The translations under genes and the position numbers were made by a program. Positions 3,859-39,552 of a stretch of 42,292 bases of DNA are shown in pieces. Within the stretch, counting starts at the first letter, position 1; the number at the start of each line of letters is the position of its first letter. The notes beneath the pieces were generated by a model that saw nothing but the letters and a program-made list of their open reading frames with translations, was not told where the DNA came from and did not search any database. The stretch comes from Escherichia phage K1ind1: the sequence record NC_041897.1; one strand, written 5' to 3'.

Positions 3859-4319
3859 TGATGGGCTTTTTCAAAGTAACTGATGTACCGTCACGTCGCG
3901 TAGTCCAGTACGCCCGCGTGTCTGGCTCTGGTGAGAACGTGGTGTTTATTGATGATGAAAGTGTACTCGGTACACCCGAAGACGATATGCCGTTTGCAGA
4001 TAAAACCGGTATTGCGTTACCCGCGGCGGGCATGCTTTATGAAATTCCGTATCTGGCGGATGCAGGTGACGTGTATTTCTCGGTGCAACCGAAAGACACC
4101 GAGCTGGTCGACGGTAGCGCCACCATCACCGTCGAAGTTAAGGCGGGTAAAGCGCCGTGTGTACTGACCTGGTACAAAGACGGCAAGGAAGTGGTAAACG
4201 CCCCAGAAGAGGCTTTGTCTCTGACGGTTAATGCTGTCGGTGAATACTTCGTTAAAGTCACCGATGCCGATGGGGTAGAGGCCGTCAGTAAAGCGGCGAA
4301 GGTTACTAAGCCAGAATAA
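3858..4319 (+). CDS. Ig-like (Big_2-type) domain protein, possible capsid decoration
   Basis: 153 aa; C-terminal beta-rich segment with TWYKDGKEV motif typical of phage Ig-like domains; start overlaps upstream stop (TAATG). Confidence 0.5.
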   Translation: MMGFFKVTDVPSRRVVQYARVSGSGENVVFIDDESVLGTPEDDMPFADKTGIALPAAGMLYEIPYLADAGDVYFSVQPKDTELVDGSATITVEVKAGKAPCVLTWYKDGKEVVNAPEEALSLTVNAVGEYFVKVTDADGVEAVSKAAKVTKPE

Positions 4320-4323
4320 ACTG

Positions 4324-4345
4324 AAGCCCCGAAAGGGGCTTTTTA
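4324..4345 (+). terminator. rho-independent terminator
   Basis: AGCCCC-GAAA-GGGGCT hairpin followed by TTTTT. Confidence 0.6.
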
Positions 4346-9769: not shown

Positions 9770-10182
9770 TGGGCTACTTTGAGGACTTAACGAAAGCGTT
9801 TGATGCGCCGCTGGTAGCCTTCGGAACCGCCAACGGCATCAAGGTCGCGCTTGAAAATATCGACGCGCCGACGTCAACCGATACGCCGTATCTGGCAAGT
9901 TATATGTTGCTGGCGGATACGGAACAGGCGGATTTGTTCTTCACGGAACAACGCGCGGGTGTTTATCAGGTCGACATTAACTACGCATCGGTGAAAGGTA
10001 GCGCGCCGATCAATAAAATGGCAGACTTACTTAACACGGCGTTTAAAGCAGGTAAGTCATTTTCACGTAACGACATCTGCGCCGTTGTGAATGAGGTTAG
10101 CCTGGGGCCGCTGATTGTAGAAAACGGATGGGCCAAACGACCATTGTCAATTAACTTTATTGCATTCACCAAGAGGCTGTGA
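9766..10182 (+). CDS. tail terminator-like protein
   Basis: 138 aa; immediately upstream of major tail gene. Confidence 0.4.
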   Translation: MMGYFEDLTKAFDAPLVAFGTANGIKVALENIDAPTSTDTPYLASYMLLADTEQADLFFTEQRAGVYQVDINYASVKGSAPINKMADLLNTAFKAGKSFSRNDICAVVNEVSLGPLIVENGWAKRPLSINFIAFTKRL

Positions 10183-10184
10183 AT

Positions 10185-11351
10185 ATGGCTACAACTCCTT
10201 TTAAGGGCGCGAATACTGCGCAATTCTATGTGGCAGAAACTACCCCGGGCGTAACACCGACTAACCCGGTCTGGTCGCCATTGCGTAACACAGGTGGCGT
10301 TCCTGCCATTACCCGCGACACGCTGACCTCCAACGAACTGGACGGCAGCCGTGAAACTACGTCAATCCGCACCGGTAACAAGCAGGTTAGCGGAGAATAC
10401 GCTATTGAGCTTAGCTCGAAAAGCCAGGACGACTGGCTGGCGGGTGCTTTAGGCTCTACATGGCAATCCGGTAGTTCTCTGACCGGGCTATCAATTACCG
10501 TCGCGCCTGCAGGCAAGACCTTTACCCGTGCCGAAGGTAGCTTTATTTCTGACGGCGTTGAAGTGGGCGACCTGATTGCGTTTACCGACTTAACCGGTGA
10601 CAACGCAAAACCGTTTATCGTAACTGCAGTAGAGGCACTGGTAGTGACCGGGGCGGGTATCCAGCATACCCTGACCACAGAGACAGTAACTACCGCCGCT
10701 AAGACAGGGGATAAACTGGAAACGGGAAGCCAGTGCAAGACGTTCTCTATTCTCACCTGGTACAAAGGCCAGTGCGGCGGGACTGACGCGTACACACTAA
10801 CCAAAGGCGTGGAAGTTTCTGGTTTTACCATCGAACAGGCTGTTAACGCTATGGTAACTGGCAGCTTCCCGTTCATCGGTCGCAGTCAGGAGATTCTCAC
10901 CACGCAGCCGTCTGGTTCTGATTTCTCCTCTGTTACGTTTGGTGACGAGCCGTTCTCCTCGGTCGATGTTTCTGTGTTCGACGGTTCTACGCCGTTGCGT
11001 TGCGACAGCCTGACCATCACCAACGACAACAGCGCGTCCGCACAGTTCGAACTCGGCAACACTAACGTAGCGTTTGTGGAGCGTAGCCGAGCAGCTAACA
11101 CCTTCTCCATCTCCGGTAAGCTGTACGACATGGCGATGATTCAGAAGTTTATCAACGAGCAGCAGGTGGAGATTAACTCTATTCTGGCGGGGGTAAACGG
11201 GGCTATGTCTTTCAGCTTGAAACGTGCAGAACTTACCGCGGTTACACCTGAGATTGGCGGGCCTGAGTCAATCACTCAGTCCATCGAAGGCCAGGCTACT
11301 GGTAACCAGTACCAGTCGTCTATTGTTATTCAGCGCATCACCTACGCATAA
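10185..11351 (+). CDS. major tail protein
   Basis: about 388 aa from ATG 10185 (AAGAGG RBS); T/S/G-rich; precedes chaperone/tape-measure genes; followed by strong terminator. Confidence 0.55.
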   Translation: MATTPFKGANTAQFYVAETTPGVTPTNPVWSPLRNTGGVPAITRDTLTSNELDGSRETTSIRTGNKQVSGEYAIELSSKSQDDWLAGALGSTWQSGSSLTGLSITVAPAGKTFTRAEGSFISDGVEVGDLIAFTDLTGDNAKPFIVTAVEALVVTGAGIQHTLTTETVTTAAKTGDKLETGSQCKTFSILTWYKGQCGGTDAYTLTKGVEVSGFTIEQAVNAMVTGSFPFIGRSQEILTTQPSGSDFSSVTFGDEPFSSVDVSVFDGSTPLRCDSLTITNDNSASAQFELGNTNVAFVERSRAANTFSISGKLYDMAMIQKFINEQQVEINSILAGVNGAMSFSLKRAELTAVTPEIGGPESITQSIEGQATGNQYQSSIVIQRITYA

Positions 11352-11355
11352 AACT

Positions 11356-11380
11356 AAGGCCCCTTTCGGGGCCTTTTTCT
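11356..11380. terminator. bidirectional rho-independent terminator
   Basis: AGGCCCC-TTTC-GGGGCCT hairpin flanked by T-run on plus strand and TTAGTTTT on minus strand; separates major tail gene from convergent island. Confidence 0.6.
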
Positions 11381-11934
11381 TACAAACCTAATATTAAAGC
11401 AATACCTATAGCGTTCGATTTAACGTAACCCGGTATGATGTAGGTGTCATAATCTTTTACACCATCAATATCGTACAGGTAACCGCGGCTGTCCCCTTCA
11501 AACGTATGGCCGTCTCTGTGCAAGCGGACGATTCTCACATCATGCCCTGCGGCAACGATAGGGGCTACTTCGCTGGCGAACCCGCCATCAGACACCACAA
11601 AAACTTCGTCGCCGTCGGGCAAGTTTCCGGCAAGATACTTACCGAAATAATCATCACCGAATACCGGTTTAATGAATTGCTCGGAAATGGCAATCATGAG
11701 CTGACGCCGAGACAACCCGTTAAGGAAACCCTCTGGCTTTTCTTTCCGCGCCCGGTCGTCGTAGCCGTCGAGAAACTCGCGGTAAGCATCCTGGCCTAAC
11801 GCAGCCATAGCAATATTGAACATCGGATTCTTGAAACTGGCGACACCCTTCGCAAAGCCCATTTCTACCAGCGCCCTAGCAAGTGTGTCTTTCCCGCAGC
11901 CCGCAGGACCATTAAGAATAATTACCTTAGCCAT
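11380..11934 (-). CDS. P-loop nucleotide/polynucleotide kinase (dNMP-kinase-like)
   Basis: 184 aa; Walker A GPAGCGKDT near N-terminus; small alpha/beta kinase size; last gene of leftward island. Confidence 0.6.
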   Translation of the reverse strand: MAKVIILNGPAGCGKDTLARALVEMGFAKGVASFKNPMFNIAMAALGQDAYREFLDGYDDRARKEKPEGFLNGLSRRQLMIAISEQFIKPVFGDDYFGKYLAGNLPDGDEVFVVSDGGFASEVAPIVAAGHDVRIVRLHRDGHTFEGDSRGYLYDIDGVKDYDTYIIPGYVKSNAIGIALILGL

Positions 11935-12419
11935 TATTTATCACTCCCATGTGGTTTTAAGTGTGTAGAGTTCCCGTTACAGTCGTATTCAGTAACTGCG
12001 TGAGTGGTTATGCCGAGTTCGCGGAAATGCTTTATTACCGCTGGAGAGTCGTCGAATGCACACAAGATTCTCTCCGGCCCAATAGCACGCAACACCTCTT
12101 CTTTAATTACGATGTCTTTTCTGTTGTCGTGTTTGCTGCGCATGATTAACTGATAAAATTCGACGCGGTGGCGCTGCAACCACATTCTGGTTTCTTTTTC
12201 CGCGTCATCACTACGGCCTGTTAAGATAATAACGGCATAGCGACGATTAAGGGCGTTACACAGTTCGATGTTATCTTTAATGGGTGCATCGTCTTTGCAC
12301 GCCATGTTAAATGGTTTCCACGCCCAGGTTTCGCCGTAGTTATCTTTCGGCAGCAGGTGTAAACGATGAGTACCATCTGCCAATGTCCCGTCTAAATCGA
12401 AAATCACAATATCTTTCAT
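11934..12419 (-). CDS. HAD-superfamily phosphatase
   Basis: 161 aa; HAD motif I FDLDGTL, motif II ILTGR, motif IV FDDS; start overlaps upstream stop (ATGA). Confidence 0.65.
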   Translation of the reverse strand: MKDIVIFDLDGTLADGTHRLHLLPKDNYGETWAWKPFNMACKDDAPIKDNIELCNALNRRYAVIILTGRSDDAEKETRMWLQRHRVEFYQLIMRSKHDNRKDIVIKEEVLRAIGPERILCAFDDSPAVIKHFRELGITTHAVTEYDCNGNSTHLKPHGSDK

Positions 12420-13546
12420 CCAAGCATCTCCGGTGAAATAGTTAAACGTGCGACCTCGCCATATTCGGCGCTATAAGTAATTACGTTTGCACTGCGGCCC
12501 GACATCCACCCACCGCGGGAGGCATATGCATCTTTAGCCGCGAGAGTGCGGTGTTGCTCAACAATCATGTTACGGCTTTCTACAATCTTTTGGTGGTGCA
12601 GGTGACCCACGTGGGCGTAGCTGTAAACACTCTCGCCGAACGCTTTGCGGAACTTGGCGATCATAACCGGTTCGATAGCGTCGAATCGTGCTTTATGCCC
12701 ATGATGGAAGAACAGCGTCGTTTTGCCGTGTTGCACCATCTTGTAAACATCCGGCGACGTATCGACGAACACACGCGGCTCATTGTCGTACAGCGTACTA
12801 AACATCTCAGCTAACCAAATCATTCCGCTTTCGTCGTGGTTACCTTGCACAATAAGCAAGCGAACATTTTTATGCTTAACAAGGGCCATATCAACGACAC
12901 GGCGGACCATACGAATCATGTAGCGGACCAGTTTCTGATAGCGCGTGTCCGCATCGAGAACATGACCACTTGCCGGTGTAACGGCGTCCAGGCTATCGAA
13001 GTGCGCAAGGTCGCCGAGCAGATTAATAACTCCTGTTCCTGCATCCGGCGCTTTCTGAAACGCGGCATCGAACCAACGAGAGAACAGGTCTTCCGCGATT
13101 TTCATATCCCAGTCGTCGCCGCTCTCGTCAGCCCATGCCAGCATACCGAGGTGAAAATCAGATACCGTGTAAAGATTGAGTAGCTTGCCGTCGCGTTTGG
13201 CGCGTGCTGCTTTAACAGGGGCGACTGGCGTAATCTCTGATTTCATTCCTTCGATTACGGCTTTCATCAACTCGACCTGACGTTCAGCATCGGTGTCTGT
13301 CTTAACCCATTGCAACTTAGTGTTGCCGAACTCGTCCACCAGCGACGACGTTCCTTTAATCTTGTAGCCGTCCGGCACAAGGTGACTAACGTCGCGCCCG
13401 TGGCCTACGCCTTTCTTAGCCAGCTTCGCTTTACGGATACGGATAACGCGGTCAGAGATGCCGTATTTACGAGCTATATCGATATTCTTCATCCCGGCGT
13501 TCAATTCTTCCTGCAACTGTTCGTCGGTTATTTTCTTCTGGGCCAT
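12416..13546 (-). CDS. HTH domain fused to calcineurin-like metallophosphoesterase
   Basis: 376 aa; N-terminal HTH (NIDIARKYGISDRVIRIRKAKL); metallophosphoesterase motifs SDFHLG, GDLAHFD, GNHDE, HHGH, GHLHH; GAGGAAG RBS. Confidence 0.65.
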   Translation of the reverse strand: MAQKKITDEQLQEELNAGMKNIDIARKYGISDRVIRIRKAKLAKKGVGHGRDVSHLVPDGYKIKGTSSLVDEFGNTKLQWVKTDTDAERQVELMKAVIEGMKSEITPVAPVKAARAKRDGKLLNLYTVSDFHLGMLAWADESGDDWDMKIAEDLFSRWFDAAFQKAPDAGTGVINLLGDLAHFDSLDAVTPASGHVLDADTRYQKLVRYMIRMVRRVVDMALVKHKNVRLLIVQGNHDESGMIWLAEMFSTLYDNEPRVFVDTSPDVYKMVQHGKTTLFFHHGHKARFDAIEPVMIAKFRKAFGESVYSYAHVGHLHHQKIVESRNMIVEQHRTLAAKDAYASRGGWMSGRSANVITYSAEYGEVARLTISPEMLG

Positions 13547-13584
13547 ACTTACTTCCTCGTGTTTAGGATTTGTCCTATACTAGC

Positions 13585-13776
13585 TCACTTCTCGTTAACA
13601 TTCGAGTTGCACGCCCAGATTAAAATAAAGACCCACGGCAGCAGCGCCCAGCCAAGAAACAGATTAGCCATGAATATCGCTAACTTCGCTTTATGGTTAC
13701 GGAAGTACGCAACCAGGAAAGGCGCAAAATAAACGAGAAGTGCAAACAGAATTAAGGAAACTGGTAAACTTGACAT
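13585..13776 (-). CDS. small membrane protein, superinfection-immunity (Imm) family-like
   Basis: 63 aa from second ATG (GGAGG RBS); two hydrophobic helices flanking RNHKAKLAIF...GWALLPW, a pattern resembling the Imm superinfection family. Confidence 0.5.
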   Translation of the reverse strand: MSSLPVSLILFALLVYFAPFLVAYFRNHKAKLAIFMANLFLGWALLPWVFILIWACNSNVNEK

Positions 13777-13806
13777 TTTAAATCCCTCCATTGTTGGTGT
13801 AAGTGA

Positions 13807-13835
13807 ATAGTACCCTATTATATTGGGGTGTGCAA
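13807..13835 (-). promoter_or_regulatory. sigma70-like promoter TTGCAC-17-TACTAT with embedded AATAG-N4-CTATT palindrome (13806-13819)
   Basis: minus-strand reading CTTGCACACCCCAATATAATAGGGTACTATTCAC is nearly identical to the plus-strand cassette at 35342; lies about 30 nt upstream of the Imm-like gene. Confidence 0.5.
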
Positions 13836-13943
13836 GTAATGTGATAGAATAATTTTGCGCCTAGTGTCGCACACGAAAAGCGGATGGTTACCGTCTGGCG
13901 CATTTATCGTTAACCTGTAACCTCTTAACCAAAGGATTAAAGA

Positions 13944-23996: not shown

Positions 23997-24007
23997 CAAA
24001 TAAAACT

Positions 24008-24032
24008 AAGGCCCCAAACGGGGCCTTTTCTC
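24008..24032. terminator. bidirectional rho-independent terminator
   Basis: AGGCCCC-AAAC-GGGGCCT hairpin with T-runs on both strands; separates convergent morphogenesis and replication blocks. Confidence 0.65.
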
Positions 24033-24417: not shown

Positions 24418-25838
24418 TTCTTACCTCGTCTCTTCATGTAATTAAGCAATTCTTCTTGCACAGATTTCTTTTCGTCAGTACGCGCGGCGACAACCTCGTC
24501 CAGCGTGTCTTTAGCAACGATGTGGTACAGGAACACCGGCCTCTCGTGTCCTGCCTGTTTCTGGCGGACCGGGCCTATTCGCTCGACAACCTGCAAATAG
24601 TGTTCAAGATTCCAGCCTTGCGAAATAAACGCCAGATGATGCCCGCCGTCCTGTAAATTCAAACCATGCCCGGCTGACGCAGGATGCACGCATAAGATTT
24701 CGATTTCCCCGCGGTTCCACGCTTCCATCTGCTTATTGCCCTTAGCGCCTTTGGCGAACGCCTGTGCTTGTGGGAATCGCTTAAGGATACGCTCAAGTTC
24801 GTGCTTAAACTGATAGGCTACCAGTAACGGTGCGCCCTGTAACTCCTCAACAATGGACTCAAGCGCATCCAGTTTCGTATCGTGCACTTTCTCCCAGTCT
24901 TTCGTTGCTTCGCCGTCTGGCCCGGATACATACACGGCACCGGATGCAATCTGCAGGCACTTCGACGTCTTCGCAGCAGCGTTAGCCGCTTCAACTTCCC
25001 CGCTCTCCAGTTCCGCGAATAACTTTTCCTCCATATCGATGTACGCCTGACGCGCCTTCTTCGGCAGGTCAATTTCCACTGGCACGATAATCGGCGCTTC
25101 GCAACCAAACCACTCGGCGGCGTCAATCGTGAGACTAATGTCTTTCATCTTCTGATGAATCTCATTATCCGCACCCGGTCGTGCGTGATACTCCCGCGCC
25201 ATCGCGGATTTCCCTTTCTGTACCGAGTTAAACCAGCGGTCTGTGAATGCCGTGTACGAAGAACCAAGGCGCTCGCCAGCGTCGATAAACCAGTTCTGCC
25301 CCCACAAGTCCTTGAGGCCGTTCGGCGACGGTGTGCCTGTCAGGTTAATGAAACGCTTAACCTTTCCGAACGCCACTTTGCTTAGCGCCTTAGCCCGTTT
25401 GCTTCCTCCAGAACGGCTACGGAAAGATTTCAGCTTCGTGCTCTCATCAGCAACGATAACCGTAAAAGGCCAGTCGTCTTTGCCGTAGTAGTCAATCAGC
25501 CACTCGATAACTTCGTAGTTTGTGCACACCACGTTAGCATCTGACTCCAGCGCCGCGATACGGCGCTTCTCTGAACCGGTTGCGTCTACGACACTCAGAC
25601 AGGGGAAGTTCCAACGTGCCTGTTCCGCGGGCCACGTACCTGACGCAACACGTAAAGGAGCCAGAATTAACACTCGGTCGTCGTCATTAAGTTGCCCATT
25701 ACGGAACAGCCGATTGAGAACCCACAACGTTGACCCCGACTTACCGCTGCCCATGCTCGCCCAGATATTGCAGCGATGGTGCCGCAGCATGAACGAAGTC
25801 ATGAGCTTCTGGTATTCGCGCCTTTGAAACTTACTCAT
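24414..25838 (-). CDS. superfamily-2 helicase (SNF2/DEAD-like)
   Basis: 474 aa; Walker A SMGSGKSGST, DExx box IVADESTK, motif VI-like QVVERIGPVRQKQ. Confidence 0.65.
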   Translation of the reverse strand: MSKFQRREYQKLMTSFMLRHHRCNIWASMGSGKSGSTLWVLNRLFRNGQLNDDDRVLILAPLRVASGTWPAEQARWNFPCLSVVDATGSEKRRIAALESDANVVCTNYEVIEWLIDYYGKDDWPFTVIVADESTKLKSFRSRSGGSKRAKALSKVAFGKVKRFINLTGTPSPNGLKDLWGQNWFIDAGERLGSSYTAFTDRWFNSVQKGKSAMAREYHARPGADNEIHQKMKDISLTIDAAEWFGCEAPIIVPVEIDLPKKARQAYIDMEEKLFAELESGEVEAANAAAKTSKCLQIASGAVYVSGPDGEATKDWEKVHDTKLDALESIVEELQGAPLLVAYQFKHELERILKRFPQAQAFAKGAKGNKQMEAWNRGEIEILCVHPASAGHGLNLQDGGHHLAFISQGWNLEHYLQVVERIGPVRQKQAGHERPVFLYHIVAKDTLDEVVAARTDEKKSVQEELLNYMKRRGKK

Positions 25839-26655
25839 TTACCGCCCCCATGAATGCCTTTATAAATTCAGCGGCTACTTGCGGGACGATGGCATTGCCA
25901 TAACCGCGCAATCGTCCCACTCTGGCGGGTATCCCATTAGCCAGCGGGAATGCGCCGGGTTCAACTGGCCTGAATTTTCCATCCCGGCATCCGAGCCAGT
26001 CAGTATCTGACCAGAAGCCGTGATGCGGATTGGTTGTGTTATTTTCAGACCCTGCTCCGTCGAGTAGTCCAGCCTGTCGAATGTCCTGTCCTTCCCGTCC
26101 TTGCGAATCACTGTCTCTCCGCTCCCCCTGTAGTCGTTCGCTGTCGGTGTAGGCCAATTGGTGCGCACCAAAGAAGAGCCGCTCTCTTTTGTGCGGTGCG
26201 CCGACGCTACAAGCTGGAAGTACGGCAAACCCGACGGCGTAGTCTTCTCTTTCCATGTGAATCTGTAAATCGCACATCCACGATTTTGCAATTGCTGGCG
26301 CAACCTGTTCCCCAAAGAGGACTGGAGGGCGGCACTCGCTGATGAGGTCGAGGAACACAGGTGCAAGGTGTCTAGGGTCGAACTGTCCGAGTTGCTTTCC
26401 CGCCGCGCTAAACGGTTGGCAAGGCGGGCTTCCCGTCCAGAGAGGCGCATCTTCCGGAACTCCCGCAAGTCTGAGCGCGAGAGGCCAGCCGCCGATACCC
26501 GCGAAAAAATGACACTGGGTGAACCCGTCAAGGTCTTCTGGCTTAACTTCGGTAATGCTTCTTTCATCTACAACTCCAAAAGGTATGTGACCCTGTTTTA
26601 TTAATTCACGCAGCCACGCGGCTGCACCTTTATCCCATTCGTTGTAATAGTTCAT
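25831..26655 (-). CDS. DNA (cytosine-5)-methyltransferase
   Basis: 274 aa; motif I FAGIGG, motif IV PCQPFS, ENV-like FGEQV, C-terminal motif X GNAIVPQV; short target-recognition region. Confidence 0.75.
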   Translation of the reverse strand: MNYYNEWDKGAAAWLRELIKQGHIPFGVVDERSITEVKPEDLDGFTQCHFFAGIGGWPLALRLAGVPEDAPLWTGSPPCQPFSAAGKQLGQFDPRHLAPVFLDLISECRPPVLFGEQVAPAIAKSWMCDLQIHMEREDYAVGFAVLPACSVGAPHKRERLFFGAHQLAYTDSERLQGERRDSDSQGREGQDIRQAGLLDGAGSENNTTNPHHGFWSDTDWLGCRDGKFRPVEPGAFPLANGIPARVGRLRGYGNAIVPQVAAEFIKAFMGAVNE

Positions 26656-26873: not shown

Positions 26874-27158
26874 CTAACTATAATAGTTCGCTATTAGGTC
26901 GTCAACCTGTTTAAACGAACCAACGACAAAAACATTTGCACCGCGTTTACGCATCCGCCCGTGCTCTCGTAGCTGGTGTGGGTCTGGCTTCGTGCTTTCG
27001 TCTTTCTTAACCTCAACGAACCAGATGATGCCGCCGGGGAGAATTACCAGCAGGTCGGGGGCGCCCACTCTATTTTCGTACGACAATTTGCGTACGAGGC
27101 CCCCCAGGGCCTCGAATCGCTCTTTTGCGTATTTCTGTACGCGGCCCTCTTTAGTCAT
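26874..27158 (-). CDS. VRR-NUC domain nuclease (PD-(D/E)xK)
   Basis: about 94 aa from ATG 27158; GAPDLLVI ... VEVKK motif arrangement typical of VRR-NUC. Confidence 0.55.
   Translation of the reverse strand: MTKEGRVQKYAKERFEALGGLVRKLSYENRVGAPDLLVILPGGIIWFVEVKKDESTKPDPHQLREHGRMRKRGANVFVVGSFKQVDDLIANYYS
26877..26905 (-). promoter_or_regulatory. sigma70-like promoter TTGACG-17-TATAGT with AATAG-N4-CTATT palindrome in spacer (26882-26895)
   Basis: read on minus strand; lies inside the last codons of the VRR-NUC gene; drives 26843 and downstream genes. Confidence 0.45.
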
Positions 27159-27307
27159 GAGCGCAGAACCCAAGTAAGGAAAGCCCCTCCGAGAACGGCA
27201 ACGCCCACAAACTTAAAGAACAGGCCGTAACAGAACATCGCGGCTATTCCCGCACCGAGTAACAGCGCGAGCATGGTTACTATTGACCTAAATACAAACA
27301 TCTTCAT
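27155..27307 (-). CDS. small hydrophobic membrane peptide (50 aa, below ORF-track cutoff)
   Basis: ATG with GGAGG RBS; single predicted TM helix; stop overlaps VRR-NUC start (ATGA). Confidence 0.3.
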   Translation of the reverse strand: MKMFVFRSIVTMLALLLGAGIAAMFCYGLFFKFVGVAVLGGAFLTWVLRS

Positions 27308-31314: not shown

Positions 31315-31833
31315 TTATTCTTCTTCGAAATACTTGTTCTTGATTGCCGTCAGGCGTTCCAGGTATTCGGCAAGGTCTTCGTCTTTAATCGCGGCAATCT
31401 TCATCTTCTTACCGGTGAACTCTTCCAGCAGTTCATCGGAATCATCGCACGCGGCGTCGCTCGGACCTTCGTTAATTGCATCGTCGATAGCCTGAATCTG
31501 GTCACGCAGAGACTGGTAATCTACTTCTTCCTTCTCTTCCGGTTCTGGCGTCGGTTCCTCTACTTTAGATTTACGCGGCTTGCGTTTCGGCTTCTCTTCT
31601 TCTGCTGGTTTAGTGTCGACGATGTCTTCACCTTCAACCGGGATTTCTTTCGCCTTCTCGACTTCTTCAAGTGCTTTAGCCAGTTCTTTTTTAACTGTCT
31701 CTACCCCAGTTACCGCGACGTCAACAGTCAATTCACCTACAGATTTGCTAGTCGGTTGTTTCACACTGTTTGCAGCAATCAGTTCGTGGGCGACTACGAA
31801 ACGTTCCAGTAATACCAAGAATTTCTCTAACAT
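31315..31833 (-). CDS. hypothetical acidic protein
   Basis: 172 aa; E/K/P-rich central linker, acidic C-terminus; first gene downstream of leftward promoter. Confidence 0.45.
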   Translation of the reverse strand: MLEKFLVLLERFVVAHELIAANSVKQPTSKSVGELTVDVAVTGVETVKKELAKALEEVEKAKEIPVEGEDIVDTKPAEEEKPKRKPRKSKVEEPTPEPEEKEEVDYQSLRDQIQAIDDAINEGPSDAACDDSDELLEEFTGKKMKIAAIKDEDLAEYLERLTAIKNKYFEEE

Positions 31834-31865
31834 TTGTTTCTCTCCTCTCGTTTGGTATGTGTTAA

Positions 31866-31894
31866 ATATAATAGCGAACTATTCACGTTGTCAA
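31866..31894 (-). promoter_or_regulatory. sigma70-like promoter TTGACA-17-TTATAT with AATAG-N4-CTATT palindrome in spacer (31870-31883)
   Basis: consensus -35 on minus strand (plus 31889-31894), -10 at plus 31866-31871; upstream of 31833 gene. Confidence 0.5.
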
Positions 31895-31914
31895 TGGGCT
31901 TTTCTAAAATAATT

Positions 31915-31928
31915 AATATGGTACTATT
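31915..31928 (+). promoter_or_regulatory. imperfect copy of the palindrome (AATAT-GGTA-CTATT) upstream of Cro-like gene
   Basis: 45 bp from the perfect copy at 31870; followed by AAGGAG RBS and ATG 31959. Confidence 0.4.
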
Positions 31929-31958
31929 CACATATCAACTGACTAAGGAGTAATTGAC

Positions 31959-32174
31959 ATGCAACCATCTGAACTAGGCATCCGTGTAGAACAGCGCCGT
32001 AAAGAACTCGGCATTTCCCAACGCCGTCTGGCTGTCCTGGCCGGTGTTTCCCAGGGCGCGATTAACCAGCTGGCACTCGGTGTAACTAAGGACGTCCGCC
32101 CAGCGACGCTGTTTAAACTGGCGGAAGTGCTGCAAGTAGATGCCAAGTGGCTGGCGTTCGGTGAAGGGGCTTAA
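31959..32174 (+). CDS. HTH XRE-family (Cro/CI-like) transcriptional regulator
   Basis: 71 aa; RRKELGISQRRLAVLAGVSQGAINQL helix-turn-helix; AAGGAG RBS; followed by terminator. Confidence 0.7.
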   Translation: MQPSELGIRVEQRRKELGISQRRLAVLAGVSQGAINQLALGVTKDVRPATLFKLAEVLQVDAKWLAFGEGA

Positions 32175-34508: not shown

Positions 34509-34742
34509 TTATTCCAGGTCTTCTAAAGTAGCGGTCATTCCGCGAACTTCGGCAACAGCACTATATTTCCCGCCAACATTTTTCACGACACCAGATTTAA
34601 CCAGTACCTTCAACGACCCTTCAATAATGGCGGAACTATAGTACCTAAAATAACTACGGCGCAAGTCCATAACGCTGCACGACCCTTTTTTACGGGTTAA
34701 TGAAACGACTGCCGTAAATACGCGGGACTGGAACTCGGTCAT
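34509..34742 (-). CDS. hypothetical protein
   Basis: 77 aa; coupled downstream of AlpA-like gene. Confidence 0.35.
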   Translation of the reverse strand: MTEFQSRVFTAVVSLTRKKGSCSVMDLRRSYFRYYSSAIIEGSLKVLVKSGVVKNVGGKYSAVAEVRGMTATLEDLE

Positions 34743-34909
34743 TTTACATTCTCCTTAATCCACGCTTCCACTTTCTCCGGGTCGAAAGTACCCGGCTGCC
34801 GGCGGCCCATAATACGGATACAACAATCCGGGAACTTCCCACTCTTTAACCAGTTATTCAGCGTGCGACGGGTAACCCCAATACGCTCGGCTACTTCATT
34901 CTGTGTCAT
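34739..34909 (-). CDS. AlpA/excisionase-family HTH DNA-binding protein
   Basis: about 56 aa from ATG 34909; MTQNEVAERIGVTRRTLNNWLKSGKFP ... EKVEAWI pattern typical of AlpA-like regulators. Confidence 0.5.
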   Translation of the reverse strand: MTQNEVAERIGVTRRTLNNWLKSGKFPDCCIRIMGRRQPGTFDPEKVEAWIKENVK

Positions 34910-34941
34910 TCTCAAACCCCCATTATCAGTTAACGAAACCA

Positions 34942-34970
34942 AGTATACATTGCGAATAATGGGAAATCAA
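34942..34970 (-). promoter_or_regulatory. sigma70-like promoter TTGATT-17-TATACT
   Basis: read on minus strand about 30 nt upstream of AlpA-like ATG. Confidence 0.4.
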
Positions 34971-35343
34971 ACATAATCGCACCTATTGACATTATGGAAA
35001 TCTTCGTTTAAGGTGCTTCTGTATCTTAGTTACTTTGATTCTTGTTCACCTTGTAAAACCCGCCGAAAACGAGCGCCCAACGCGAAGTGTTAGGCGGCAG
35101 TTTACTGAACATTCGAATTATCGTAACTTTCCTTCCTAAGTATCTCCGGTTGCCATGGGCAAGCTCTATTCCCATCGGCGGAATATATCTTAAGTATCTG
35201 ATTTTCTTAAAGTGCCGTAGATTCGCAACCGTAAAAATGTAACGATTATTGGGCAGGCTTAGGGCCTGCCCTTTAGTTACCAAGTAATAAGAATAAAGGC
35301 ACAACCCTACCTGAAGAATCACAACGGCAACGTAACTAATCTC

Positions 35344-35372
35344 TTGCACACCCCAACATAATAGGATACTAT
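35344..35372 (+). promoter_or_regulatory. sigma70-like promoter TTGCAC-17-TACTAT with AATAG-N4-CTATT palindrome (35360-35373)
   Basis: conserved cassette CTTGCACACCCCAACATAATAGGATACTATTCAC; GAGGAG RBS and ATG 35407 downstream. Confidence 0.5.
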
Positions 35373-35406
35373 TCACTTATCGAAACGAGACAGAGGAGTG
35401 AGGGTT

Positions 35407-35589
35407 ATGTTTAAGAATGGTCAGTTGGTGAAAACAAAGCGCAGCCGGCAACACGTAATAGTTACCAAAGACGAGGATGAATATGGTGTTGTCGCCGTAT
35501 TTAGCCTTATACGGAGGAAACATGGTTATGTTCGTCACGATAATTTAGAACTCATCGGCAACAATTTTAAATTCAAAGGGGCGAAGTGA
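35407..35589 (+). CDS. hypothetical early protein
   Basis: 60 aa from ATG 35407; first gene after promoter. Confidence 0.4.
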   Translation: MFKNGQLVKTKRSRQHVIVTKDEDEYGVVAVFSLIRRKHGYVRHDNLELIGNNFKFKGAK

Positions 35590-35777
35590 TGGGAGAATTA
35601 ATTTACGACGTATACGTCGACGGGGTCATAACAGAGACAACAAGTAATAAAGATTACGCAATAAAGCGGTATGTGTATTATGCCGCAGTGGTAGGAAGGA
35701 TGGTAGAAGTGCGGGAGCAAACGGCATCGAATCATGATGCTTGTGCCGACGACTCTGAGGGAGGTCGCCGTGAATAA
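35589..35777 (+). CDS. hypothetical early protein
   Basis: 62 aa; ATG overlaps upstream stop (GTGATG). Confidence 0.35.
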   Translation: MGELIYDVYVDGVITETTSNKDYAIKRYVYYAAVVGRMVEVREQTASNHDACADDSEGGRRE

Positions 35778-35812
35778 GTTTATTTTATCGCCGCTTATGT
35801 GGAGCACGAGTT

Positions 35813-36007
35813 ATGGGGGTTGATATGAGCCCGTATAACGAATTCCGCTTACGCCGTCTGGTTGGGGGTATGCGCGCCGCCGAGTTCGGTGTTGAATGCC
35901 GGGAAAAGGAGGAATACACCCCCTGGAAGTCGTGGCATTTGGCTCATGCCAAGTATTGTGAGTACAAGTTAAACAGTTTCCTTAAGCACCACGGAGTTGA
36001 GTTATGA
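35813..36007 (+). CDS. hypothetical early protein
   Basis: 64 aa ORF. Confidence 0.35.
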   Translation: MGVDMSPYNEFRLRRLVGGMRAAEFGVECREKEEYTPWKSWHLAHAKYCEYKLNSFLKHHGVEL

Positions 36008-36192
36008 GTAATTACGATGCTACTAAATTCGACCATGCGTTTTTGATTAACAAGTTCTATGAGCGTTATCCGCTATCCGAGTTTAAAACAGATTCTGAAC
36101 GCGCCGATGCTCTGGGCTATTTTATGGCGGGTGCCGAGTTGCAGCGACTGGGCGCGTTCATCGAGTACTGGGAAGAAGACGAGGAGTATTGA
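36004..36192 (+). CDS. hypothetical early protein
   Basis: 62 aa; ATGA overlap. Confidence 0.4.
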   Translation: MSNYDATKFDHAFLINKFYERYPLSEFKTDSERADALGYFMAGAELQRLGAFIEYWEEDEEY

Positions 36193-36195
36193 GTT

Positions 36196-36339
36196 ATGAG
36201 AGAAGCATTCGAACGGTGGGCCGTCGTCGAGGGCCTGCCGGTTAACAAGGGTTCAAAGAAAGAGTACCTGAACGTTAAGACCCGTCTTGCGTGGCGGGCG
36301 TGGAAAGCTGGCGTGCAATCTGTGATGAATAAGGGGTGA
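36196..36339 (+). CDS. small hypothetical protein (47 aa, below ORF-track cutoff)
   Basis: ATG with GAGGAG RBS; fills gap between flanking ORFs. Confidence 0.35.
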   Translation: MREAFERWAVVEGLPVNKGSKKEYLNVKTRLAWRAWKAGVQSVMNKG

Positions 36340-36342
36340 TTT

Positions 36343-36537
36343 ATGGGTGAGTGGATTAAGTGTAGTGAGCGGATGCCGAACGAAGAAGATGTTTTGGTTT
36401 ATTGTTCAGATACAAAAGAGCAGATGGTGGGGTTTCACAAAGGTAAAGGGCTATTTCAATTCTTTTACATGAATGGTGTTGAGGGGGTATGTGAACCAAC
36501 ACACTGGATGCCGTTACCCGAGCCGCCAGAAGTGTGA
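36343..36537 (+). CDS. DUF551-like protein
   Basis: 64 aa; WIKCSERMP ... WMPLPEPP pattern characteristic of the phage-associated DUF551 family. Confidence 0.5.
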   Translation: MGEWIKCSERMPNEEDVLVYCSDTKEQMVGFHKGKGLFQFFYMNGVEGVCEPTHWMPLPEPPEV

Positions 36538-36671
36538 TGTTCAATAGTTTGGGATTTTATTGAGTGACTTACGCTGCTACACAGCAGCGTACAACTTTAA
36601 CTTAGTGTCGTCAAAAGGCGACACTTTCATCAAACGCAACAATCGAAGCGACTATTGCAGGAGATGCAACA

Positions 36672-36845
36672 ATGATTACTAAAGAACAGGCTGAACGACT
36701 AATAACGTTAATCGACACGATGATTGACGTAAAAACCGATTTAGCAACGGCAACAGAGGAATCCGCTACCTGGTCGCTTGAAGAAAGAGAAGCAGAAGCG
36801 GAAAGGGAGTTACTTGCGTTCATCGACTCTATAACACACCAATAA
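36672..36845 (+). CDS. small hypothetical protein (57 aa, below ORF-track cutoff)
   Basis: ATG with AGGAG RBS; competes with a low-complexity antisense ORF. Confidence 0.3.
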   Translation: MITKEQAERLITLIDTMIDVKTDLATATEESATWSLEEREAEAERELLAFIDSITHQ

Positions 36846-36852
36846 AATTTAC

Positions 36853-36881
36853 TTGCACACTAAGATAGAATAGGCTACTAT
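36853..36881 (+). promoter_or_regulatory. sigma70-like promoter TTGCAC-17-TACTAT with AATAG-N4-CTATT palindrome (36869-36882)
   Basis: second plus-strand copy of conserved cassette; GAGGAGAG RBS and ATG 36913 downstream. Confidence 0.5.
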
Positions 36882-36912
36882 TCATTTACACAAACGAGAG
36901 GAGAGACGGAAG

Positions 36913-37128
36913 ATGTTTAATGCAGTGGCGAGATGTTTTCACGCAATTTTCGGTGCTCCGCAAGAAGTATGCACCAAGCATAAATTTGTACTGTCTTGCG
37001 TGGTAGGGGATGAGTTTGATGGGTTCGATAAACTGTTGGTTTGCGACCATTGTGGGCAAGAAGCCATTAAGCACGCAAACGGTAAATTCGAACTAATTAG
37101 CGAGGAAGGGGACGGTGATGGTGAGTAA
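36913..37128 (+). CDS. small Cys-containing protein, zinc-ribbon-like
   Basis: 71 aa; C-x-x-C-like pair CDHCG plus upstream Cys; acidic tail. Confidence 0.4.
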   Translation: MFNAVARCFHAIFGAPQEVCTKHKFVLSCVVGDEFDGFDKLLVCDHCGQEAIKHANGKFELISEEGDGDGE

Positions 37129-37630
37129 CAAAAACGAAGTATTCGAGCACCTGATTGACCAGCTACGGCATCAGGTAAATAACAACCGGTGCGAAGACCT
37201 GGCGCATGAGGTGCAGATTAAGGAGTTGCGGGAAGACAACATTAAGAAATCTGAGCACATATCGCACCTGACCGGGCAAGTTAAGGAGTTGCGTCTGGCA
37301 TTGGCCGAGGCTACTGGTGACGTGGAGGCATACAAACTTATCCGCAAAGGTGCGTACGGTTCGGAGCAATCTGGTTGCCGAAAAGAAGATACGCAGGAAT
37401 GTGACCACAATTGGATTATCGCTCCAGGATTGTTTATTGCCGAAGGCCACAAGGACAACGTGCCCGGTAGCCTGTTTTGCTGCGAATGCGGCAAGCGTGA
37501 GTGGGACGGACTTGAGTATGGGGCAACAGCCTGTACACAGGAGTGCAAACACAGTTTCTATTATGTAATAACAGATGGCTCCGCGCCGTTCGGTACGAAA
37601 GTATGTAAAACGTGTGGGGAATACTTCTGA
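37115..37630 (+). CDS. hypothetical protein with coiled-coil N-terminus and Cys-rich C-terminus
   Basis: 171 aa; CCECG and CKTCG pairs. Confidence 0.45.
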   Translation: MMVSNKNEVFEHLIDQLRHQVNNNRCEDLAHEVQIKELREDNIKKSEHISHLTGQVKELRLALAEATGDVEAYKLIRKGAYGSEQSGCRKEDTQECDHNWIIAPGLFIAEGHKDNVPGSLFCCECGKREWDGLEYGATACTQECKHSFYYVITDGSAPFGTKVCKTCGEYF

Positions 37631-37833
37631 TGACCAGCATCTTATTTATCTGGGTACTGTCGGCGGGCCAGATGCAACTAGCGGCATCGGAAACGTTTTA
37701 TTCGATGGAGGCGTGCCAGTCAGCGGCACGCGCCGCAGAGAACGCGCACTTTCTGTTTCAGGGTGACAAGCCCAACGATTCAGAGGTACGCGCTATCTGC
37801 TCACCTAAGCGACTTGGTAAACAGGAGAAATAA
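37630..37833 (+). CDS. small protein with N-terminal signal/TM segment
   Basis: 67 aa from ATG 37630 (ATGA overlap); MTSILFIWVLSAG hydrophobic N-terminus. Confidence 0.4.
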   Translation: MTSILFIWVLSAGQMQLAASETFYSMEACQSAARAAENAHFLFQGDKPNDSEVRAICSPKRLGKQEK

Positions 37834-38126
37834 TGTCGTTAGCAACTGACATCCTGAAACGAAGCGGCCTTGCGCCGCTGTCGCCGAGAGCGAATACGCG
37901 TATACACAAGCGCCGCCGTAATGCACTGTACCCCGAGATTCAGGCCAGACGCAAAGCGGTACGCGCCTGCGGATTCCAGAACGGGAAGGCTGTGAATCTC
38001 GGTGAGTTTAAAACACAGGAACGCGCAGCAATCGCTAATCGGCTATTTAATTACTGGAAATCGCTTGGATACGATGATATTCCGACGAAACCACAGAGAC
38101 GACAATACATCTGGCGCCATAAATAA
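37833..38126 (+). CDS. hypothetical basic protein
   Basis: 97 aa; R/K-rich. Confidence 0.4.
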   Translation: MSLATDILKRSGLAPLSPRANTRIHKRRRNALYPEIQARRKAVRACGFQNGKAVNLGEFKTQERAAIANRLFNYWKSLGYDDIPTKPQRRQYIWRHK

Positions 38127-38156
38127 ACCGTTATTAAGATAATTCCTAACCGTGCT

Positions 38157-38196
38157 ATCCTCCAGTTACTGCATACTTAATACGCACCTGGAGGAT
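38157..38196 (+). promoter_or_regulatory. hairpin sequestering the holin Shine-Dalgarno
   Basis: 9-bp stem ATCCTCCAG / CTGGAGGAT with 22-nt loop; 3' arm contains GGAGGA RBS located 6 nt before TTG start at 38202. Confidence 0.4.
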
Positions 38197-38201
38197 TCAT
38201 C

Positions 38202-38510
38202 TTGGATAAATTTACTGAAACAGTGACGGGGTGGCTTCTCGCCGCCGCACTGGTCGGTGGATTGGTCGGGCTAAGACAACATAAAAAGTCTATATCCGGG
38301 CCGATTGACGGACTGGTATTTCTTCTCACCGGCTTCGCGTGTGCTATTTTCGGTGCACCTCTTGCCGCTCAATGGTTCGGTATTACCGGTGAGCGTGAGA
38401 TAGCTGGCCTCGGATTCATCATTGCCATTCTCTGGATGCCTATCTATTCCCGCCTTTCTGGCATCGTATCGGGTGGCGATATTGCCCGCCCAGGAGGACC
38501 GCATGACTGA
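38202..38510 (+). CDS. holin-like membrane protein
   Basis: 102 aa; TTG start; three predicted TM segments; immediately upstream of endolysin. Confidence 0.5.
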   Translation: MDKFTETVTGWLLAAALVGGLVGLRQHKKSISGPIDGLVFLLTGFACAIFGAPLAAQWFGITGEREIAGLGFIIAILWMPIYSRLSGIVSGGDIARPGGPHD

Positions 38511-38775
38511 GCTATTCTGGTTTGTCACAATGCTTTCAATGGGCGCTTCGTCCCTGTTCAACGTGTATAATGAACGCGTGGACGACGGGCTGTTCGGGCG
38601 TGTTCTCTATATCCTGACTGCTATCGTCTGTGCCGCCGGATGTATTCACCTGTTACAGGGCAGCATGTCGCCTACGCTGCCTGAGACATTAATCACATTA
38701 GTCGCGCTGCGCCAGATTCGCCAGGCGTGGCTGTCATACGGAGGACATAAGCGTGTCTCGAAATATTTCAGATAA
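38503..38775 (+). CDS. second holin/antiholin-like membrane protein
   Basis: 90 aa from ATG 38503 (GGAGGA RBS); two to three hydrophobic helices; overlaps endolysin start. Confidence 0.4.
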   Translation: MTELFWFVTMLSMGASSLFNVYNERVDDGLFGRVLYILTAIVCAAGCIHLLQGSMSPTLPETLITLVALRQIRQAWLSYGGHKRVSKYFR

Positions 38776-39238
38776 TGGATTGCATTTCTGTGCCGCGTTC
38801 GAGGGATTCCGCGGAACTGCGTATCGCGCTACGCCGAACGAGAAGTACCTGACTATTGGTTATGGTCACTACGGGCCAGACGTAACACCAGGTAAGACCA
38901 TCACACCAGGACAGGGCTTGCTGTTACTGAATCGCGATATGGCTAAGGCTGTAGCTGCTGTTGACGCAGCAGCACACCATTCGCTTACACAGGCACAGTT
39001 CGATGCGGTGTGTGACCTGGTCTATAACGTGGGGGCTGGCGTGATTTCGGCTACTACCGGTACAGGTAAGGCACTGCGCTCCGGTGATATCGCGACGTTA
39101 CGGGCTAAGCTGGCGCTGTTCATCAACCAGAACGGCAAACCACTACTTGGCCTGCGTCGCCGTACAGCCGGGCGTCTGGCGCTGTTCGACGGTAAACCGT
39201 GGCAAGAGGCTGAGGCTATCGGTAGGGCGGTTAAATGA
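38753..39238 (+). CDS. endolysin, GH24 lysozyme (T4/lambda R-like)
   Basis: 161 aa; catalytic-region pattern HFCAAFEGFRGTAYRA ... IGYGHY typical of phage lysozymes. Confidence 0.75.
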   Translation: MSRNISDNGLHFCAAFEGFRGTAYRATPNEKYLTIGYGHYGPDVTPGKTITPGQGLLLLNRDMAKAVAAVDAAAHHSLTQAQFDAVCDLVYNVGAGVISATTGTGKALRSGDIATLRAKLALFINQNGKPLLGLRRRTAGRLALFDGKPWQEAEAIGRAVK

Positions 39239-39396: not shown

Positions 39397-39402
39397 ACCA
39401 AT

Positions 39403-39430
39403 TGACACCTGAGACTAATCCGACGATACT
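39403..39430 (+). promoter_or_regulatory. sigma70-like promoter TTGACA-16-GATACT
   Basis: consensus -35 hexamer read directly; followed 40 nt later by strong terminator. Confidence 0.45.
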
Positions 39431-39469
39431 TAAATCACCTCCTGTTCCATCCCTCTGCTCTCCAGTTTT

Positions 39470-39503
39470 ATCCCGGCCCTTACCCAGCCGGGATTTTTTT
39501 TAT
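39470..39503 (+). terminator. strong rho-independent terminator
   Basis: ATCCCGGC-loop-GCCGGGAT hairpin followed by T8. Confidence 0.65.
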
Positions 39504-39523: not shown

Positions 39524-39552
39524 TTGACTATTACCTTAGACCCTATTATATT
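39524..39552 (+). promoter_or_regulatory. sigma70-like promoter TTGACT-17-TATATT
   Basis: near-consensus hexamers; about 30 nt upstream of ATG 39586. Confidence 0.5.

Follow-up and report, generated by a model that had tools for sequence, protein, structure and literature searches.

The operators of phage 434 are 14 bp long, and the C proteins of restriction-modification systems bind palindromic boxes that overlap their own promoters and autoregulate, C-boxes being paired sites that mediate activation and then repression. The element considered here has the length of the 434 operators. It is the 14-bp dyad AATAG-N4-CTATT, which recurs within promoters of Escherichia phage K1ind1 (record NC_041897.1; 42,292 nt, the whole stretch analysed, referred to below as the window), three of these promoters being near-identical cassettes distributed over both strands. 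The window belongs to Kagunavirus (Guernseyvirinae), as a K1ind/K1G-like siphophage of E. coli, and this phage group is considered virulent. The closest record, K1ind2, is 94.8% identical across 84% of the right half. The best explanation of the dyad, for which we estimate a probability of about 0.6, is that the promoters are of the sigma-70 type and have an embedded operator for a 434-Cro-like protein, through which accessory, island and replication operons are co-repressed.

The window protein in question resembles 434 Cro in being a single-domain HTH_3 protein of 71 aa (HTH, helix-turn-helix), with the same fold and 40–43% identity. As in the 434 switch, 14-bp dyad operators overlap promoters, and the regulator gene adjoins a divergent control region where two operators occur, the one in its own promoter being the weaker. 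In contrast to 434, the window has no CI partner, the divergent gene encoding a 172-aa acidic protein in which no HTH was found, and the half-site is AATAG instead of ACAA. Unlike the lambdoid switch, there is no tripartite OR1-3 array but a single operator per promoter, spread over at least six promoters, and integrase is absent from the annotations of the relatives Ent1, Bas72, SETP3 and phiEap-2. The small XRE-fold model of the window protein also matches the structures of the C proteins C.AhdI and C.BclI, but the sequence similarity to them is weak (E 0.09–0.7). Unlike in C-protein systems, the methyltransferase gene of the window (25831-26655) lies downstream of the operator-bearing promoter at 26905, and the HTH gene is not next to it.

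The cassettes are also comparable to the PeSL cassettes of T4-type phages, near-identical early-promoter units which are repeated in each genome and border hypervariable small-gene regions (PMC2839356, PMC4122927). The window cassettes differ from these in having no obligatory stem-loop/terminator half, in numbering just 3–4 copies and in the presence of a palindromic operator. The motif itself has been recorded before. In the Kagunavirus fBC-Eco01, PHIRE gave the consensus tgAATAGTa-ccTATTat-T at 7 sites, which were termed promoters of a phage-encoded RNA polymerase (PMC9825357), and this is the window motif in the same genomic places (TGAATAGTACCCTATTATAT and similar). In the promoter list of the paper on Golestan, another Kagunavirus, PHIRE accounts for 7 promoters (PMC7203180). 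The fBC-Eco01 and SETP3 reports, and the Golestan paper as far as its promoter list goes, either give no mechanism or credit the motif to a phage RNA polymerase that does not exist, and in none of them is there mention of a dyad symmetry, of register classes, of lineage variants or of a connection with the HTH gene. A Cro-type switch has not yet been described in this phage group and in that respect is new relative to earlier descriptions; it is an ordinary type of switch, reused in a virulent background, and introduces no new principle.

The repeated palindrome and its promoters

Computed here, from the window and its relatives, were the repeat with its symmetry and promoter context, the degree of conservation, the variation in register and the lineage-specific replacement. 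Three of the copies lie in the cassettes that define promoter class A:

35343..35379 (+): cassette 1 (class A), -35 TTGCAC at 35344-35349, 17-nt spacer, -10 TACTAT at 35367-35372
35360-35373 (+): putative operator of cassette 1, AATAGGATACTATT; predicted +1 near 35379, ATG at 35407 (MFKNGQLV)
36852..36888 (+): cassette 2 (class A), -35 TTGCAC at 36853-36858, -10 TACTAT at 36876-36881
36869-36882 (+): putative operator of cassette 2, AATAGGCTACTATT; predicted +1 near 36888, ATG at 36913
13800..13836 (-): cassette 3 (class A), the leftward island promoter, -35 TTGCAC at 13835-13830, -10 TACTAT at 13812-13807
13819-13806 (-): putative operator of cassette 3; predicted +1 near 13800, ATG at 13776, with an in-frame ATG also at 13791

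A preliminary description, made from the sequence alone, had listed three near-identical cassettes on both strands, and its coordinates and sequence agree with ours to within a few nucleotides. The pattern CTTGCACAC-N6-A-N-AATAGG-N-TACTATTCA is present in three copies, at 35343(+), 36852(+) and 13836(-), against 0 expected by chance. The 33-nt pattern CTTGCACACN6ANAATAGGNTACTATTCA has exactly three matches in the window, still three when 3 mismatches are allowed, and zero in 100 dinucleotide shuffles. Cassettes 1 and 3 are identical at 35/37 positions and cassettes 2 and 3 at 83% over 47 nt; cassette 2 starts 8 nt past the stop codon of the upstream gene. All three cassettes satisfy sigma-70 geometry (TTGNNN / TANNNT, 17 ± 1 nt) in the form TTGCAC-17-TACTAT, with the -10 located 31–34 nt from the ATG. 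Their hexamers agree with the sigma-70 consensus at 8 of 12 positions, and it is because of this that a generic sigma-70 scan skipped them; the silence of that scan is judged uninformative against the cassettes. The promoter assignment made in the preliminary description is supported by the -35/-10 geometry, which is kept at the orthologous sites of many relatives, and independently by the record of Salmonella phage SETP3, where a BPROM promoter is annotated at the site orthologous to the island promoter. In that record the SSB site has a BPROM promoter as well. Under the best explanation, the three cassettes would be paralogous copies of one promoter for host RNA polymerase (sigma-70 type) together with its initial transcribed region.

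Other ways of reading the cassettes as promoters were rejected. An alternative -10 (TATAAT, CATAAT or TAGAAT), 8 nt before TACTAT, is only 7 nt from TTGCAC and has no conserved -35 located 17 nt upstream, and a promoter on the reverse strand inside the class A cassettes has no -35 there.

The preliminary description correctly saw a repeated promoter but overlooked the dyad, which is the element really shared. In a repeat search the downstream half of the cassette recurred at 31914-31936(+), and part of the cassette also matched 31865-31886. The window contains 5 exact copies of AATAG-N4-CTATT (13806, 26882, 31870, 35360 and 36869) against 0.06 expected, and 10 copies against 0.96 expected if one mismatch is allowed. 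All exact copies lie within -35/-10 pairs. In the class A register, 10 nt separate the -35 from the palindrome, the right arm of which is inside the -10 hexamer. In the class B register the distance is 4–5 nt, and the palindrome fills the spacer of a near-consensus leftward promoter (26905, 31894). The promoters outside the cassettes are the following:

26877..26905 (-): class B promoter TTGACG-17-TATAGT, exact palindrome at 26882-26895 in the spacer; transcript predicted to begin with ACACCAACAAT
31865..31894 (-): class B promoter TTGACA-18-TATATT, exact palindrome at 31870-31883 in the spacer
31914..31936 (+): promoter of the HTH gene, half-cassette TAATATGGTACTATTCACATATC, with 87% identity to cassette 1 across 23 nt
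31919-27 (+): -10 of the HTH gene promoter, extended TGgTACTAT, 31 nt before the ATG, with a cassette-like TTCAC discriminator and no TTGCAC -35
31915-31928 (+): one-mismatch operator AATATGGTACTATT in the HTH gene promoter
39524..39552 (+): comparison promoter TTGACT-17-TATATT, with the right half-site only (CCCTATTATATT)

The 31894 promoter feeds the gene of the 172-aa acidic protein and, further leftward, replication genes, and its leader holds AAACGAGAG. The 39524 promoter stands before small genes that lead to the packaging and structural genes; it is a candidate for a non-repressed late promoter. The operator-bearing promoters take in the early genes and the island, as had been proposed, and in addition the replication operons and the gene of the candidate regulator itself. 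That the leftward island shares its regulation with the rightward small-gene operons is reasonable to suppose and was counted as supported. The dyad is also found in promoters with quite different hexamers (26905, 31894 and that of the HTH gene) and behaves like an operator, not like a promoter element. An outer symmetry, CATT-N6-AATG, in the leftward promoter at 34970 comprises only 4+4 bp and was judged to be due to chance.

The -35, operator and -10 of the 26905 promoter overlap the last ~10 codons (..VDDLIANYYS*) of the open reading frame (ORF) at 26874-27173, which is the positional counterpart of the Holliday-junction resolvase gene annotated in relatives. The segment 26874-26905(-) appears to be dual-coding, as protein C-terminus and as regulated internal promoter, and this arrangement is kept in Jerseyviruses.

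Conservation and replacement among relatives

When IMG/VR was scanned with TTGCAC-N10-AATAG-N4-CTATT, 109 sites were obtained, ~95 of them in Kagunavirus-like contigs of 40–45 kb. They represent the three orthologous classes and, in addition, a class D located before small leftward genes among the head genes. The logo of 64 unique class A sites reads CTTGCACAC..A.ATAATAGG.TACTATTCA, and orthologues of cassette 1 are present in about 39 unique relatives. When 44 unique sequences of the divergent region are aligned, the arms are invariant and N4 is variable, in agreement with the class logos, and GTACTATT is invariant at the HTH gene promoter in 44 unique relatives. To cover the diversity of the HTH protein, 80 loci (L numbers below) were fetched by the HTH protein and not by the motif. 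A blind count of perfect 5-Nx-5 palindromes placed AATAG-N4-CTATT first or tied first in every Kagunavirus and Jerseyvirus locus obtained in this way.

The position of the palindrome relative to the -35 is variable. Among 211 exact palindromes in 50 related sequences, 130 have a TTGACA-like hexamer 4–5 nt upstream and 76 have the hexamer 9–11 nt upstream, i.e., 206/211 carry a -35-like hexamer in one of two registers; Jerseyvirus island promoters have a third register, of 7 nt. Several registers would not be expected of a fixed RNA polymerase contact, and are compatible with an independent DNA-binding protein.

Lineages with a diverged HTH protein have other dyads at the equivalent promoter positions, TTAGC-N2-GCTAA in L150 and L155 and AATAC-N4-GTATT in L135, and in each of them the HTH gene's own promoter contains a one-mismatch copy of the lineage's own dyad. 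On sequence grounds, these are most simply regarded as natural specificity variants of a regulator-operator pair. The covariation of operator and HTH protein is suggestive and not clean, because Kagunaviruses and Jerseyviruses share the operator arms despite different recognition helices. The HTH-bearing contigs of ~40 kb, from more distant phages, have dyads at 9896, 14523, 16413 and other positions (L150, L155) and at 2396, 2461 and 5428 (L135), with the same architecture.

These data bear on the view that the cassettes are plain duplicated sigma-70 promoters without an operator, the symmetry arising only incidentally from AT-rich -10-like hexamers on the two strands, as bidirectional promoter symmetry, and from recent duplication. 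In favour of this view, -10-like hexamers are contained in CTATTAT and its complement, TATAAT is found on the reverse strand at 26882, and cassette 3 is adjoined by a divergent extended -10 promoter. The near-identity of cassettes 1 and 3, which extends to non-functional spacer positions, points to recent duplication or gene conversion. Nevertheless, the left arm, AATAG, belongs to the spacer, a region without base-specific sigma-70 contacts, and is invariant in two genera, whereas N4 and the -35 vary. The reverse strand of class A has neither a TAnnnT at the symmetric position nor a -35, the palindrome stands at several registers from the -35, and other lineages have swapped in a different palindrome at the same place. 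Taken with these points, the absence of an operator seems distinctly unlikely.

The sequences behind the cassettes are changeable. The 36852-type cassette, with leader and Shine-Dalgarno (SD) sequence, was found at 32 unique orthologous sites, after which about 19 unrelated first ORFs occur; at least 3 different first genes follow the island cassette, and 6 small leftward genes follow class D. This would suit units which, in the manner of PeSL, have homologous recombination and the shuffling of accessory genes as their chief effect and regulation as a secondary one. Such a role leaves the dyad symmetry unexplained, as well as the presence of the same palindrome in non-paralogous promoters of conserved replication genes, and as the main function of the element we consider it very unlikely; it is compatible with the co-repression model and is not a true alternative to it.

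The designation as promoters of a phage-encoded RNA polymerase, which goes back to the 7 motif copies found by PHIRE in fBC-Eco01 and to its authors' label (PMC9825357), has almost no probability. No RNA polymerase was detected with Pfam or PHROGs scans among the window ORFs of at least 349 aa, with the exception of the 416-aa ORF 1-1251, which matches a terminase-family gene of relatives by position and size. The sole ORF above 800 aa is a conserved tail protein, and RNA polymerase is absent from the annotations of Ent1, Bas72, SETP3 and phiEap-2. The motif is moreover palindromic and flanked by TTGNNN hexamers at sigma-70 spacing.

Two relatives, L085 (31251) and L084 (32156), have an extra class B operator promoter before a Gp2.5-like SSB gene, with a conserved hairpin, GGCCGGGCAGCTTCCCGG, in the 5' untranslated region (5'UTR). 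At the corresponding position the window has no exact or one-mismatch palindrome.

The candidate binder and its proposed action

The protein that would recognize the dyad is encoded next to two of its copies:

31959..32174 (+): 71-aa HTH_3 (XRE/Cro) protein, candidate operator-binding repressor (Pfam HTH_3, 1.1e-12)

Its top sequence match in PDB is 434 Cro (E 1.7e-7), which likewise has 71 aa. The AlphaFold2 model has five helices (predicted local distance difference test score 79) and in Foldseek matches 2cro/3cro with TM-scores of 0.73–0.81 at the 40–43% identity mentioned above. Searches with the HTH protein returned only close relatives (75% identity or more). Both operators, at 31870-31883 and 31915-31928, fall within the 125 bp that precede the HTH gene and form the divergent control region; no HTH or Pfam domain was found in the product of the divergent gene (31315-31833). 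Synteny between the HTH_3 gene and the divergent operator pair is kept in all lineages, with a degenerate operator copy in the promoter of the gene itself.

The operator may be real and its binder another protein, e.g., the second HTH protein of the window, an HTH_17 (AlpA-like) protein encoded at 34739-34942, another small early protein or a host factor. The conserved HTH_17 gene is nearby and is 80% identical between Kagunaviruses and Jerseyviruses, which share the operator arms, and the recognition helix of HTH_3 differs between these genera while the operator is the same. However, the whole phiEap-2 genome, and the sequence up to 10 kb from the HTH_3 gene in L135, L137, L150 and L155, yielded no HTH_17 homologue. 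The lack of a detectable homologue in lineages that keep palindrome-bearing promoters disfavours HTH_17 as the binder and counts for HTH_3, as does the synteny of the HTH_3 gene with the operator pair and the degenerate copy in its own promoter. Besides, AlpA/Xis-type proteins usually bind direct repeats and not 14-bp dyads. As regards a host factor, the island cassette had no match in 5,426 E. coli genomes and is therefore not host- or prophage-derived, nor is there any sign of a host regulon site. A binder other than the HTH_3 protein is on balance unlikely.

We infer that the HTH_3 protein binds the palindrome, that binding represses, and that repression sets the timing. Upon infection, host RNA polymerase would fire all operator-bearing promoters. 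The Cro-like protein would then accumulate, and its dimer would bind the operators and block RNA polymerase, so that the accessory and replication operons and the anti-superinfection/RNA-repair island would be shut off jointly. Last to be silenced would be the promoter of the HTH gene itself, which has the weaker operator. Promoters with a half-site only, such as 39524, would escape and stay on for the late genes.

Several points weigh against this co-repression model. The recognition helices of Kagunavirus and Jerseyvirus differ at most positions (SQGAINQ and SQSLITH, respectively) in spite of identical operator arms, and in the phiEap-2 lineage the motif is mixed and degenerate. A protein bound at the weak (8/12) class A promoters could in principle activate and not repress. 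The lysis genes lie downstream of cassette 2 with no intervening terminator in a simple scan; being behind cassette 2, they are a poor fit with a simple early shut-off, unless read-through or another promoter serves them. Finally, the literature on Guernseyvirinae (Jerseyvirinae, Kagunavirus, Ent1, MB78, K1ind) yielded only PHIRE/BPROM predictions, and no binding, footprint or transcription-start work was found in it.

A wider reading, doubtful as a whole, combines three propositions: the CI-less 434-Cro-like protein might be the master timer of virulent Guernseyvirinae, repressing every early/middle promoter via dispersed single operators; from the island operator the protein might also activate the late tail genes; and the cassette might be a portable co-regulated unit for accessory genes swapped by recombination. 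The tail genes have their own predicted promoter on the other strand of the island region:

13842..13850 (+): extended -10 promoter TGaTAGAAT, which diverges back to back from cassette 3 towards the tail genes (from 13944 on)

In more than 20 relatives TG-n-TAGAAT is invariant and n variable, and equivalents are present in phiEap-2 and Ent1. The centre of the island operator is ~44.5 nt upstream of the predicted start of this promoter.

Kagunaviruses and Jerseyviruses are widely isolated for phage therapy and food biocontrol. If the co-repression model is true, one small protein and a 14-bp site coordinate accessory, island (anti-superinfection, RNA-repair) and replication genes in phages that lack their own polymerase. 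The published label of "phage RNAP promoters" (RNAP, RNA polymerase) would be corrected, and annotators would gain a simple motif for the real promoters. For engineering, the system would also supply an orthogonal repressor-operator pair that is compact and comes with natural specificity variants.

Leaders, neighbouring genes and minor features

The leaders that follow the promoters share short sequences. That of cassette 1 is given as an example:

35380..35406 (+): cassette 1 leader, unstructured and A/C-rich, containing AAACGAGAC and the SD GGAG

Two exact copies of the 11-mer ACACCAACAAT, and no more, occur in the window, at 13800-13790(-) and 26869-26859(-), the first base being the predicted +1 at both; the earlier description of a leader partly common to cassette 3 and the 26877 promoter transcript agrees with this. 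AAACGAGAG is found exactly at 36892(+) and 31853(-), and in the one-mismatch form AAACGAGAC at 35383(+). Across the window the leader 9-mer, with one mismatch allowed, is not enriched (13 found, 9.9 expected). The idea that the conserved leader is a post-transcriptional control element found no support, because the four leaders have no structure above that of shuffled sequence (folding z of +1.8, -0.1, +1.2 and +0.9, three of them folding worse); an Rfam scan of the whole window gave no match. Judged from sequence and folding, the leaders look like unstructured A/C-rich 5'UTRs which were inherited with the promoter and are followed by a Shine-Dalgarno sequence, not like structured control elements, and a sequence-specific RNA-binding factor could in principle act on them. 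Hairpins are likewise absent from within the cassettes, and only cassette 1 has a terminator near it, about 70 nt upstream.

Within 13842-13905(+), the tail promoter is followed by a conserved leader, GCGCC...GGCGC, which folds into an outer stem and two hairpins, with compensatory changes at three pairs in 6 sequences and no Rfam match. It may be a leader RNA element of the tail operon.

According to the annotated relatives Ent1, Bas72 and SETP3, the genome has rightward structural genes at 1–24 kb, interrupted by the leftward island at 11380-13791, then leftward replication genes at 24–35 kb and rightward small-gene and lysis clusters at 35.4–42.3 kb. The genes behind the cassettes are:

11380..13791 (-): island operon behind cassette 3, ending at a bidirectional terminator, 11356-11375
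35407..39238 (+): genes after cassettes 1 and 2, encoding small proteins with function unassigned, DUF551 and DUF7438
38202-38510 (+): holin, downstream of cassettes 1 and 2
38753-39238 (+): endolysin, following the holin

The island products include, by Pfam, an Imm-type superinfection immunity protein, a metallophosphoesterase, a PNKP-type HAD phosphatase and a P-loop kinase-like protein. A near-identical bidirectional terminator, ATAAAACTAAGGCCCC-N4-GGGGCCTTTT, is present in three copies at module boundaries (4315-4344, 11348-11377 and 24000-24029), so that terminators are likewise reused as cassettes.

Cassette 1 is preceded by a non-coding gap of 400 nt (34943-35342) with opposing terminators at 35096-35074(-) and 35251-35271(+). 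The gap contains a strongly conserved AAGAATCACAACGGCAACG at 35314-35332, the minus strand of which reads TGtGATTCT, possibly a leftward extended -10 promoter of the primase-helicase operon.

A further unit, at 39402-39500(+), occupies part of the 350 nt that separate the endolysin gene from the 39524 promoter. It consists of TTGACA-17-GATACT and, ~40 nt later, a strong intrinsic terminator (cccggccc...gggccggg-like stem and T8), and would yield a non-coding transcript of ~60–70 nt. Its T-run and flanks are conserved in the Jerseyvirus Ent1.

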